A program made the position numbers and the translations under genes. Below, piece by piece: positions 114-1,672 of a stretch of 1,842 nucleotides of DNA (position 1 is its first letter; each line of letters begins with the position of its first letter). Source of the stretch: Escherichia coli (GTDB taxonomy: Bacteria > Pseudomonadota > Gammaproteobacteria > Enterobacterales > Enterobacteriaceae); NCBI RefSeq assembly GCF_044324875.1, contig NZ_CP172193.1; one strand, written 5' to 3'. The notes beneath the pieces are model-generated. The model did no database searches. It had not been told where the DNA came from and saw only the letters and a list, made by a program, of their open reading frames with translations.

Positions 114-638
114 ATGCTGGAACAGCGATTTGAAGACTTTGAACAGCAAAAACGGCGAGATCACAAGGCACAAGATCAAGCCCAAAACACTAAGCAAAAA
201 CGAGATCGGTTGAATCCACCTGACTGGTCACAAGTCACTAAGGCTGGTTGGAATATGTTGGACGCTATATCCGAGAAGGTTCCTAGGGCATTTAGGCTAT
301 ATTCTTTTTTTGCTCAAAATATAGATAAATCGTGTGGAGCTGTTGTATGTGATCAAAAATTCCTAGCTGATTATTTCGGGGTTAGTTTAAGGACAATTCA
401 ATATTGGATCGGAGATTTAGAACGTATTGGTGCAATAGTAAAAATACCAGTAGGTATTTATTATGCTTATGCTTTAGATCCTTATCAGGTATGGCGTGGA
501 TATAATAAATCTAAAAAATATGCAGCATTTAACGCAAAAACATTAACTCAAAAAGATGGTGTTATTGATCGTAAGTTGCGGCTCATGCTCTCTAGAAGAG
601 AAGATTTTGAAAGCTCACTCAAGCCCTCTAAATCATGA
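114..638 (+). CDS. Winged-helix (HTH_36/RepL-like) DNA-binding protein; candidate plasmid replication initiator or replication-associated regulator (~175 aa)
   Basis: Six-frame ORF 15..638. Start reassigned to ATG 114 because AAGGA at 102-106 sits 7 nt upstream, whereas ATG 15 has no Shine-Dalgarno and its first 33 codons overlap the palindrome array and encode an atypical Cys/Arg/Val-rich peptide. Stop TGA 636-638. Motif FLADYFGVSLRTIQYWIGDLERIGAI (nt ~360-437) fits the recognition-helix pattern of HTH_36-type winged helices found in small-plasmid Rep proteins. N-terminus is a charged low-complexity stretch (EQRFEDFEQQKRRDHKAQDQAQ). AT-rich codon usage. Family assignment is from recall, not a search. 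Confidence 0.65.
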   Translation: MLEQRFEDFEQQKRRDHKAQDQAQNTKQKRDRLNPPDWSQVTKAGWNMLDAISEKVPRAFRLYSFFAQNIDKSCGAVVCDQKFLADYFGVSLRTIQYWIGDLERIGAIVKIPVGIYYAYALDPYQVWRGYNKSKKYAAFNAKTLTQKDGVIDRKLRLMLSRREDFESSLKPSKS

Positions 639-875: not shown

Positions 876-919
876 AAGTGAAATATTTTAAAGAGCCAGC
901 GGCAGGGGGACAATCGGAT

Positions 920-955
920 TCAAATGTTAACATTTGACATCGGATTATCTATCCT
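920..955 (+). promoter_or_regulatory. Candidate sigma70 promoter (-35 TTAACA 927-932, 17-bp spacer, -10 TATCCT 950-955) overlapping an 18-bp perfect palindrome (920-937)
   Basis: Seen directly: tcaaatgttaacatttga at 920-937 is a perfect palindrome. TTAACA and TATCCT are separated by exactly 17 bp. A TTGACA hexamer at 934-939 has no well-spaced -10. The element sits exactly at the AT-rich/GC-rich junction and points into the structured GC-rich block. Promoter activity is inference. Confidence 0.3.
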
Positions 956-1063
956 GCATTGCTCTTTTGCCGCCTCAAAATCCCTTGCGTGTTTTTGCTC
1001 CCCGATCTCCAGAACGACCGAGCCGCCACGGTTCCGGCAGCGCCTTGAGCGCAACCGGAAACC

Positions 1064-1083
1064 GTCTGGGGAGAACCCCAGAC
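1064..1083. other. Perfect hairpin: 8-bp GC-rich stem (gtctgggg / ccccagac) with AGAA loop
   Basis: Seen directly: 1064-1071 is the exact reverse complement of 1076-1083. Not followed by a T-run on either strand, so not a canonical intrinsic terminator. An imperfect longer stem (acggttccgg 1028-1037 / ccggaaaccgt 1053-1063) lies just upstream. Consistent with a structured RNA or DNA element. Confidence 0.4.
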
Positions 1084-1379
1084 CCCCATCGCTGTAACAC
1101 CGACGGTCTACGACCACCTACCAACCGCGTGACTGTCTGTTTCGTGCAAATGGGCTTTGCAGGGGGCTGGCGCGGTTCCTGGCGACCTGAAAGCCCCTGG
1201 TTAGGGGTATCGGCGCGCCTGACCTCCTGAGAGCCTCTGTAAGCGTTTTTCGCGCCTTCCATGCCCTGGCGGGCATCTAAAACCCGTTTCGTGCGTCTGA
1301 GAGCTTTTGAGCGCGTTTGAGGGGCTATCTGGCGACTCATCCCCGAAAGAACAACAACGGGATCACCGACAACATGCGA

Positions 1380-1447
1380 GAGGTGATCCCGCTCGCCGCA
1401 AGTCGATGACCGAGCGTAGCGAGCGAATCGACGAGGAAGCGGAAGAG
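1380..1447 (+). other. ColE1/pMB1-family conserved origin-proximal segment (region between oriV and bom; possibly the primosome assembly site region)
   Basis: Hand alignment of 1380-1447 (gaggtgatcccgctcgccgcaagtcgatgaccgagcgtagcgagcgaatcgacgaggaagcggaagag) with the pBR322/pUC sequence gagctgataccgctcgccgcagccgaacgaccgagcgcagcgagtcagtgagcgaggaagcggaagag (recalled from memory) gives about 53/68 identities with no gaps. Orientation and distance to the bom homology match ColE1-type plasmids. The primosome-site assignment is inference. Confidence 0.6.
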
Positions 1448-1483
1448 AACCGGAAGCCACATTGAGCACTTACGCACTGATGC

Positions 1484-1508
1484 GGGGTGTCGGGGTGAAG
1501 CCCTGACC
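1484..1508. repeat. Left arm of a 25-bp inverted repeat (23/25 match to the reverse complement of 1711-1735)
   Basis: Seen directly: ggggtgtcggggtgaagccctgacc at 1484-1508 versus the reverse complement of 1711-1735, ggggtgtcggggcgcagccctgacc. Arms are about 200 bp apart and bracket the predicted nic region. Confidence 0.8.
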
Positions 1509-1513
1509 AGGTG

Positions 1514-1551
1514 GTAATCGTATCGGCGTGCGTGCGCGGTCATACGATTAC
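1514..1551. other. Hairpin with 10-bp perfect stem (gtaatcgtat / atacgattac) and 18-nt GC-rich loop, inside the oriT region
   Basis: Seen directly: 1514-1523 is the exact reverse complement of 1542-1551. Lies between the two arms of the 25-bp inverted repeat. Function unknown; possibly an accessory protein binding site or single-strand initiation structure. Confidence 0.4.
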
Positions 1552-1672
1552 ACATCCTGTCCCGATTTCTGAGGCGTTTTAACGGTGAACGGACGGCAAA
1601 AACACGATAGAGCTGTTGAACGTGAAAACCACGAAATCTGGCAAAAATCACGGCTGGCGAGGCTTGCAGAGG

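Follow-up and report, generated by a model that had tools for sequence, protein, structure and literature searches.

The closest described relatives of the DNA studied here are pKL1 (NC_002145, 1549 bp, from E. coli) and pMG828-1 (NC_008486), whose Rep proteins belong to the same family as the one found here. The oriV of pKL1 is reported to lie upstream of rep, with Rep sites, an IHF box and a perfect inverted repeat of 16 bp (PMC3832669). Plasmids of the Col(MG828)/pKL1 type were detected in 530 of 880 ST131 genomes (PMC6949217). They are among the commonest small E. coli plasmids, and typing and mobility tools call them 'Col' and 'mobilizable'. We found that the window, by which we mean the whole 1,842-nt stretch that was analysed, corresponds to an entire E. 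coli plasmid of this family, 1.84 kb in size and 99% identical to NZ_CP070127. Its layout is like that of pKL1 and pMG828-1, with an AT-rich inverted repeat and repeat region upstream of rep, and its positions 893-1738 are 86-97% identical to the GC-rich half of pKL1, whereas the AT-rich halves of the two plasmids are only ~65% alike in their DNA. The window plasmid belongs to the pMG828-1 branch and differs from pKL1 in having a Rep of 174 aa instead of 158 aa and an extra 72-aa frame, ORF2 (657-875, + strand). ORF2, taken from the open reading frame list, is present only in the pMG828-1 branch and matched nothing in Pfam and NCBIfam searches; its counterparts in relatives are annotated as 'hypothetical protein'. 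The plasmid is an ordinary, largely known system of the previously described pKL1/Col(MG828) type. In the explanation that we consider probable, positions 900-1480 are its non-coding, cis-acting half, made up of an IncX4-type oriT, conserved origin-side DNA and a primosome-type site, on a plasmid whose replication is started by Rep and not by a ColE1 RNAII.

The rep gene (114-638, + strand) encodes a 174-aa helix-turn-helix (HTH) initiator of the pKL1 RepA or 'RepL' type. The protein is 42% identical to pKL1 RepA (WP_000469298; E=3e-41) and ~93% identical to pMG828-1-type RepL, with a weak match to Pfam RepL (PF05732, 2e-4), and the counterpart of the gene in NZ_CP070127 is annotated RepL. The presumed Rep-dependent origin and operator region (1-113, + strand) precedes the gene and runs on across the circle into 1741-1842. 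We observe that the heptamer TTTCGTA occurs there four times (2-8, 51-57, 72-78 and 82-88) and nowhere else in the window, a count reached in 0 of 200 shuffles, and that a 16-bp perfect palindrome, CGCAAACATGTTTGCG, lies at 28-43; the inverted repeat I6 was also seen upstream of rep. The AT-rich continuation of the presumed oriV region (1741-1842, + strand), recognised by a drop in GC content, contains the IHF core consensus TATCAATGACTTA at 1820-1832, the sole match to WATCAANNNNTTR in the window, where the chance expectation is 0.14. The window therefore holds both parts of a pKL1-type replicon, namely a gene for an HTH initiator and, upstream of it, a predicted oriV with inverted repeat, repeats and IHF core. 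As part of the whole explanation, and judging from the sequence, replication is likely to start through the plasmid's own Rep at this AT-rich repeat region.

Plasmids of the IncX group are described as carrying a pair of oriTs, which lie in long inverted repeats close to taxC and to repX, respectively (PMC3402527). Window 908-961 is 96% identical to positions 27876-27929 of the IncX4 plasmid pmcr1_IncX4, where this copy lies 50 bp upstream of taxA-taxC, and window 908-967 is 95% identical to positions 1311-1370 of the same plasmid, where the copy adjoins pir/bis; the two copies form a 94-bp inverted repeat. This pattern of homology fits the published description of the double oriT. Within the IncX4-type oriT (908-967, + strand), the inverted repeat CAAATGTTAACATTTG at 921-936 is followed by the invariant GATTaTCTATCCTG/CATTG, in which, as in the nick motifs below, the slash marks the presumed cut. 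The nick motif TATCCTGC (TATCCTG/C) lies on the + strand at 950-957, within an invariant 19-nt block of the alignment, and YATCCTGY occurs twice in the window, a count that 0 of 200 shuffles reach. Positions 908-967 thus combine homology to oriT-bearing repeats with an inverted repeat that is followed by a nick region of the YATCCTG/Y type, the motif at which we assume an IncX relaxase to cut, by analogy with RP4/R64-type nick regions. On the same analogy, we infer that TATCCTG/C would be nicked by the IncX4 TaxA/TaxC relaxosome. Counting against this reading of 908-967, work based on oriTfinder assigns the 'oriT-like' region of IncX4 to another inverted repeat in another place (PMC6287198). 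The TaxA/TaxC-processed oriT of the R6K/IncX family is matched in its placement, the window oriT lying downstream of the rep operon as it does in IncX4. IncX4 plasmids, however, have two oriT copies together with taxA/taxC, whereas the window plasmid has one copy and neither gene, so that its oriT could work solely in trans, served by an IncX4 helper. For the palindrome in 908-967, a Xer/cer-type site and a Tus ter site were also considered, and both were dropped by eye as fitting poorly to the consensus sequences.

Downstream of the IncX4-type oriT, at 1388-1476 in + orientation, lies a predicted single-strand initiation (ssi) site of the primosome-assembly type (phiX174 or n'-pas type; pas below). 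Its homologue in ColE1 lies ~110-170 nt past the origin, and as the first-pass annotation had claimed, a ColE1-like post-origin segment is present: window 1389-1447 and ColE1 1309-1367, the latter being the factor Y/PriA site, share 83% identity over 60 nt. Eleven copies from six plasmid types share the pas core, CCGCTCGCCGCA...GAGGAAGCGGAA, and the TACGC downstream of it, and pas-type sites are common to ColE1, ColE2-type, IncX4, IncX-like and FII-like plasmids. All 11 copies preserve the outer stem, the ColE2-type copy showing a compensatory change on both sides, and the inner pairs are ambiguous. Counts of G:T versus A:C pairs, taken over pas and the conserved element A described below, were contradictory on both strands and did not identify the active strand. 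The polarity of pas relative to the nearest origin is mixed, with the origin followed by pas (+) in ColE1, ColE2-type and FII-like plasmids, and pas (+) followed by the origin in IncX4, the plasmids L029 and L011, and the window plasmid. These arrangements cannot all be reconciled with a single lagging-strand role. When phage relatives were searched for, nothing came up but mislabelled copies of the window plasmid and vector-derived copies of pas.

Two further transfer origins follow. An oriT of the IncI-complex (I/K/B/O/Z) type (1483-1568, + strand), with the inverted repeat GTAATCGTAT...ATACGATTAC and the nick motif CATCCTG/T at 1553-1560, is 85-93% identical to DNA that immediately precedes nikA-nikB in IncK2/Z and IncI-gamma/K1 plasmids. 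The other, at 1675-1735, is a ColE1-type oriT (bom/nic region) that shows 100% identity to ColE1 1462-1521 across 60 nt and for which the minus strand is presumably the nicked one, judging from the ColE1 nic sequence; its 25-nt arm at 1711-1735 is an inverted copy of 1484-1508 (inverted repeat I2). The strand and order of pas and this oriT agree with those in ColE1/pMB1, and the spacing between them is 95 nt in ColE1 versus 228 nt here because the IncI-complex-type oriT lies in between. ColE1/pMB1 also has RNAII, RNAI, the origin switch sequence and rop, whereas the window plasmid is without all four and would be Rep-driven. A different comparison is offered by the relaxase-less 'oriT-only' plasmids pBuzz and pCERC7, which, like the window plasmid, are tiny and cryptic and carry copies of conjugative-plasmid oriTs, some of them opposed, with no relaxase gene. 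In contrast to the window plasmid with its pKL1-type Rep, pBuzz has a rolling-circle Rep, and plasmids of the pBuzz/pCERC7 type carry two copies of one oriT type whereas three types (IncX4, IncI-complex and ColE1) are present here.

The relation to ColE1 had been drawn further in the first-pass annotation, which saw in 900-1480 the surroundings of a ColE1-type RNA-to-DNA transition. In ColE1, RNase H cleaves and Pol I begins synthesis at the origin switch sequence, and the switch itself (ggaaaaa/cgc) is at ~1198 of ColE1. ColE1 spacing does place an equivalent in the window, at ~1278 instead of the ~1250 first given. It was also correctly recognised that there is no room for a 555-nt RNAII, whose start would fall at ~720, inside ORF2, where GC content is 0.27-0.36. 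The GC-rich character of 900-1480 (0.45-0.66) was borne out as well, and folding recovers the hairpins at 1028-1063, 1064-1081 (previously 1064-1083) and 1261-1276. These are, however, a few local hairpins, and the description of the region as very structured was too strong, the ssDNA folding of 960-1480 being only marginally more stable than that of shuffles (z = -1.7 for the + strand and -1.6 for the - strand).

Such hairpins downstream of a promoter-like match, together with a ColE1-like post-origin segment at the right distance, would speak for a compact or divergent ColE1-like replicon, in which a ~300-nt transcript from 927-955 folds, its hybrid near 1250-1280 primes DNA and an antisense RNA exerts control. 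We regard this as highly improbable. The match at 927-955 exists (TTAACA-17-TATCCT, 9/12), but it is not the only candidate promoter, a second weak match at 607-636 (+) having been overlooked, and promoter-like sites are no commoner in the window (5) than in shuffles (3.5 +/- 1.8). Furthermore, 927-955 is precisely where the IncX4-type oriT has its inverted repeat and nick motif, the -10 of the match being the nick motif, which argues against its being a promoter. Upon searching for RNAI (Rfam RF00106), we obtained no match in the window at E<=10, with 73.8 bits for the ColE1 control, and none at E<=0.1 in pKL1, L011, L023, L020 and L021. Rfam scans of the window and its relatives, for RNAI or any other RNA family, yielded chance-level matches alone, for example to CRISPR-DR18, group II and miRNAs. 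In blastn comparisons at word size 7, the window showed no similarity to the RNAII region of ColE1 (640-1300), similarity to ColE1 being confined to pas and oriT, and there was no match in + orientation to the origin switch sequence (G-run ... ATGGAAAAACGC; ColE1 1170-1200) upstream of pas. The presence of a predicted Rep gene argues against replication with Pol I and without a plasmid protein, and this Rep is accompanied by an upstream region of putative Rep sites, repeats and an IHF core, as in pKL1. Finally, the same GC-rich DNA adjoins iteron, FII-like and pir-type origins that use no RNAII, and it is absent from relatives with the same Rep family. The alternative offered alongside, that 900-1480 is a truncated ColE1 origin remnant kept for its primosome site and oriT, comes close for 1388-1476 and for the ColE1-type oriT at 1675-1735, but descent from a ColE1 origin is not demonstrated, because the primosome-type site is a widely shared cassette and no ColE1 origin or RNAII sequence survives.

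We next turn to the GC-rich module at 1023-1380, between the IncX4-type oriT and pas, none of whose parts is assigned to a strand. Its left end (1023-1086) consists of the two adjacent hairpins seen by folding, at 1028-1063 and 1064-1081, and its left boundary, ~1017-1023, is set by the plasmids L005, which has a 1.3-kb insertion between window 975 and 1023, and L015. The conserved non-coding element A (1087-1278), with its long invariant blocks, is 80-83% identical to FII-like plasmids. Its terminal hairpin ATGCCC-TGGC-GGGCAT at 1261-1276 is kept in plasmids L006 and L014 with a compensatory G/C insertion; the stems of element A are almost invariant, so that covariation support for its structure is absent. 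In L006 a DnaA-box, oriR-like region immediately precedes element A and a pas copy follows it, and in L014 element A is present in two direct copies. In IncX4 and IncX-like plasmids the conserved non-coding element B (1229-1380) and the primosome-type site are contiguous. IncX4 matches window 1229-1444 at 79-82% identity, ~660-870 bp upstream of its rep gene, and window 1287-1444 is present in L026. In L029, which has window 1144-1325 and 1344-1476, a DnaA box, an AT-rich tract and four 22-bp iterons lie ~110 nt away, and in L011 module DNA is found directly upstream of rep. Element A thus recurs beside origins of other Rep families, and a priming or ssi role is the one that we favour.

The module was also examined for more conventional content. 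The minus-strand open reading frame at 975-1469 (164 codons) lacks codon-position bias and is interrupted in L011, L015 and L005, and on this evidence a 164-aa gene was rejected. The best DnaA-box matches in 900-1480 have no fewer than two mismatches, which is chance level. The minus strand also carries CTGCAAAGCC (complement of 1153-1162), which matches exactly the 10 nt of G4 around its CTG primer start site; the complementary positions fall in an invariant block of element A. A G4-type (primase-only) ssi has three stem-loops, with the CTG primer start just 3' of stem-loop I, whereas the window has no equivalent of stem-loop I preceding this sequence; the 10-nt identity is not significant, 24 of 200 shuffles reaching the local alignment, and this candidate was discarded. 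Additionally, the Rep-family plasmids L020 (1240 bp), L021 (1306 bp) and L022 (2953 bp) are without the module, and since related Rep plasmids of 1.2-3 kb thus lack the whole of it, the module is accessory. The apparent dispensability of 900-1480 for the window plasmid is read from natural variants only.

That Rep-family relatives live without it would suit the view that 1023-1380 is functionless passenger DNA, co-transferred with pas and oriT cassettes, as would its mosaic breakpoints and the absence of covariation, coding signal and any known motif. This is unlikely, however, given that copies in unrelated backbones, although only ~80% identical overall, still share invariant blocks of 17-35 nucleotides, that 80% or more of 1000-1380 is present in at least 564 plasmid records, that ~360 nt are retained in plasmids of 1.5-1.8 kb, where size is at a premium, and that placement beside origins is recurrent. 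Quite unlikely, in our judgement, is that part of 1023-1380 is a further oriT mimic, aimed at the MOBC/MPF_T FII-like plasmids of 24-30 kb, on a plasmid that has collected the oriTs of several helpers. Three oriT-type sequences are indeed already present, element A is common to conjugative MOBC plasmids at 80%, and it has an oriT-like layout, in which the hairpin GCCCCT-GGTT-AGGGGT (1192-1208) is followed by the strictly invariant ATCGGCGCGCC. Its resemblance to RSF1010-type GGTAAGTGCGC is weak, and no similarity to a known nick region was detected. The copy in the 24-kb MOBC plasmid adjoins repA/oriR, with mobC and the coupling-protein gene ~6 kb away; rep genes are likewise the neighbours of element A in L029, IncX4 and L011, and L029 is typed as non-mobilisable. 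Since the contexts in the 24-kb plasmid and in L029 indicate origins and not mob genes, element A was rejected as an oriT. More tentatively, and as a possibility to which we give limited credence, the recurrence of 1023-1380, next to the primosome-type site, beside the origins of at least five unrelated Rep families may reflect an undescribed host-dependent priming or establishment signal, more than padding round the known pas. As such a signal, it could be a primase or primosome entry site that defines the start of the first DNA strand, or it could be used on the incoming strand after IncX4-type transfer.

For the Rep-started plasmid that we favour, the following working is proposed. With an IncX4 plasmid in the same cell, the TaxA/TaxC relaxosome would nick 908-967 at TATCCTG/C on the + strand. 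Whenever the region becomes single-stranded, 1388-1476 would load the host primosome and the complementary strand would be primed, the GC-rich DNA upstream of 1388-1476 probably assisting. Single-strandedness could arise by passage of the fork in Rep-driven replication or by conjugative entry, in which case the region would form the first ~500 nt of the + strand to come in after the nick at 955/956.

The analysis reveals no new replication mechanism, and the 'Col' label of Col(MG828)/pKL1-type plasmids is unrelated to ColE1-type RNA priming. The borrowed cis sites, three oriT types and a primosome-type site, would let a relaxase-less 1.8-kb plasmid use several helpers, which bears on how plasmid typing is read and on co-transfer with mcr-1 IncX4 or IncI plasmids.

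We found that the window represents an entire small plasmid, circular and 1842 bp long. Over its full length it is 99% identical to NZ_CP070127 (1843 bp) from E. coli; its identity to pMG828-1 (NC_008486) is ~90%, and all three are assigned to type Col(MG828). The AT-rich half (1-890 and 1741-1842) encodes rep (114-638, 174 aa) and, directly after it, ORF2 (657-875, 72 aa), and the GC-rich half (~900-1740) has no annotated genes. ORF2 obtained no match in Pfam and NCBIfam searches; it is missing from pKL1-type relatives and has a weak promoter-like site upstream (607-636). Rep is 42% identical to RepA of pKL1 (NC_002145; E=3e-41) and matches Pfam RepL weakly. For pKL1, the passage of PMC3832669 that cites Burian et al. 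2003 places the origin upstream of rep and describes in it a 16-bp perfect inverted repeat together with an IHF box and several sites bound by Rep. In the window, TTTCGTA occurs four times, all inside 2-88 (reached in 0 of 200 shuffles), a perfect 16-bp palindrome lies at 28-43, and the sole match to the IHF core consensus is at 1820-1832; the presumed origin shares the reported pKL1 layout of repeats, 16-bp palindrome and IHF core upstream of rep.

The first-pass annotation had described 900-1480 as ColE1-like origin-proximal DNA with too little space for a canonical RNAII, an observation that is largely right. Using ColE1 (NC_001371) as the control for an Rfam scan and for sensitive blastn against the window, we recovered RNAI in ColE1 at 645-749 on the minus strand (73.8 bits), with the origin switch sequence ggaaaaa/cgc at ~1198. 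The same Rfam check, which had been proposed earlier, gave no RNAI in the window at E<=10, nor in pKL1 and four relatives (E<=0.1). Three similarities to ColE1 were found by blastn, namely 1389-1447, the conserved post-origin segment recognized previously (83% to ColE1 1309-1367, ~110-170 nt past the origin), 1675-1734 (100% to ColE1 1462-1521, the bom/nic oriT), and 24 nt that repeat one oriT arm in inverted orientation; beyond the post-origin and oriT segments, the ColE1 RNAII region showed no blastn similarity to the window. By ColE1 spacing, the origin equivalent falls at ~1278 and the RNAII promoter at ~720, inside ORF2, leaving no room for a canonical RNAII; the spacing arithmetic and the hairpins given earlier are both correct. 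We reject a ColE1-type replicon, and the suggestion of a compact RNAII replicon is wrong, given the absence of RNAI and of RNAII similarity and the pKL1-like Rep and origin layout. The other earlier reading, a remnant retained for its primosome site and oriT, came near the mark, but is better put as a pKL1-type plasmid, Rep-driven, with a set of shared cassettes.

Copies of the primosome-assembly-type site (pas) align with 1388-1476 in ColE1, in one ColE2-type plasmid, in IncX4 plasmids, in a small IncX-like plasmid and in an FII-like 24-kb plasmid, which has two; the ColE2-type copy lies just downstream of rep, the IncX4 copies ~700 bp ahead of the rep gene. The core is nearly invariant, with a conserved TACGC ~20 nt further on, and the outer stem is kept in 11/11 copies, both of its sides having changed in the ColE2-type one; counts of G:T versus A:C pairs gave no answer as to the active strand. 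In ColE1/pBR322 the homologous segment is the factor Y/PriA primosome assembly site, at which priming of the lagging strand takes place. From these alignments, the ColE1-like post-origin segment appears to be a shared priming cassette.

A promoter had also been proposed at 927-955, and a consensus scan does report this site, but such sites are no commoner than in shuffles and it coincides with an oriT. Window 908-967 aligns with IncX4 plasmids, 4.2-kb RepL plasmids and 2.1-kb Col(BS512) plasmids, sharing a core of the inverted repeat CAAATGTTAACATTTG followed by the invariant GATTGTCTATCCTGCATTG. In pmcr1_IncX4 the element is present twice, forming a 94-bp inverted repeat, with one copy 50 bp ahead of the relaxosome genes taxA-taxC and the other just past pir/bis-like replication genes. 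This is the published picture of IncX plasmids, whose hallmark is a pair of oriTs within long inverted repeats, one of them near taxC and one near repX (PMC3402527). The window matches YATCCTGY only twice, at 950-957 and 1553-1560 of the + strand (0/200 shuffles reach two). The proposed -35 TTAACA is the inverted-repeat centre and the -10 TATCCT the nick motif, and the supposed promoter is part of a predicted transfer origin. Nicking of this IncX4-type site at 955/956 would send the + strand into the recipient with 956-1480 first, and the + strand primosome site, ~430 nt from the leading end, would then prime complementary-strand synthesis; in IncX4, oriT and pas have the relative orientation seen in the window.

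Window 1483-1568 is 85-93% identical to the DNA that immediately precedes nikA-nikB in plasmids of the IncK2/Z and IncI-gamma/K1 groups, and corresponds to an IncI-complex (I/K/B/O/Z)-type oriT with inverted repeat GTAATCGTAT/ATACGATTAC and CATCCTG/T at 1553-1560, whereas the ColE1-type oriT (1675-1735) lies in opposite orientation. Positions 1484-1508 and 1711-1735 form a 25-nt inverted repeat (92% complementary, GGGGTGTCGGGG..GCCCTGACC), whose arm is present in both oriT regions, here facing each other ~200 nt apart; one arm is therefore common to the oriT families of IncI type and ColE1 type. The 1.8-kb plasmid thus carries three putative oriT types (IncX4, IncI-complex and ColE1) and no relaxase gene, resembling pBuzz and pCERC7, described oriT-only hitchers, in having oriT sequences without a relaxase gene.

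Between the IncX4-type oriT and pas, 1023-1380 is non-coding; a 164-codon frame on the minus strand shows no bias at third codon positions and does not stay open in the more distant copies. An insertion of ~1.3 kb with two hypothetical genes, present in a 2.8-kb relative (L005 560-1834 versus window 976-1022), defines the left edge of the GC-rich non-coding module (~1017-1023). Because it separates this module precisely from the oriT of IncX4 type, it marks a permissive junction. Element A (1087-1278) shows 80-83% identity with FII-like plasmid DNA, 17-35-nt invariant blocks persisting in the alignment, and in one FII-like plasmid the order is repA, an oriR-like DnaA-box region, element A immediately after it, and then a pas copy. 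In IncX4 plasmids and in L026, element B (1229-1380) adjoins pas without a break. One IncX-like plasmid (5.2 kb) has A', B and pas ~110 nt from a textbook origin with DnaA box, AT-rich stretch and four iterons, and one RepL plasmid (4.2 kb) has all of 908-1475 immediately ahead of its rep, with none of the other oriTs. Because it recurs beside the origins of FII-like, IncX4, IncX-like and RepL plasmids, the block is an origin-side accessory that moves between replicon types. A further oriT within 1023-1380 is disfavoured by the genomic contexts. In a 29.8-kb plasmid (L014), direct copies homologous to window 1088-1265 (2145-2322 and 3001-3178) flank a ccdA-ccdB toxin-antitoxin pair, which hints at recombination or duplication involving element A.

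No covariation backing a specific fold was found in 1023-1380. The hairpin ATGCCC-TGGC-GGGCAT (1261-1276) recurs alone with its flanks in the 1306-bp Rep-family plasmid (L021 836-860), in L026 (382-411) and in Sodalis and Arsenophonus plasmids, unrelated plasmids in some of which it is inverted; a compensatory G/C insertion lengthens its stem in L014 and in the FII-like plasmid L006, and no T-run follows it on either strand. On the minus strand, CTGCAAAGCC (1153-1162), within an invariant block of element A, agrees in all 10 nt with the segment spanning the primer start (CTG) in the complementary-strand origin of phage G4; by itself this identity is not statistically significant, and we set it aside.

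Complete circular plasmids of 1240, 1306 and 2953 bp encode a Rep of the same family (44-47% identity), and no part of 900-1480 is present in any of the three. Since these exist without it, the module is not a general requirement of the Rep family, as judged from natural variants that are plasmids other than the window. The Col(MG828) call in PLSDB (L003, L004, L016) covers pKL1-type and pMG828-1-type plasmids, whose Rep halves are only ~65% alike, and the 1240- and 1306-bp relatives, without the GC-rich half, are also without the call. Because the call spans divergent Rep halves and is absent where the GC-rich half is missing, the typing probe may lie in the shared non-coding module, outside the replicon proper. 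Three records deposited as 'Escherichia phage' (OR844749, 1423 bp; OR844798, 1626 bp; OX638291, 1949 bp) are 92-95% identical to the full length of 900-1480 and look like copies of the plasmid family and not phages. Overall, this plasmid system is a known and common one.
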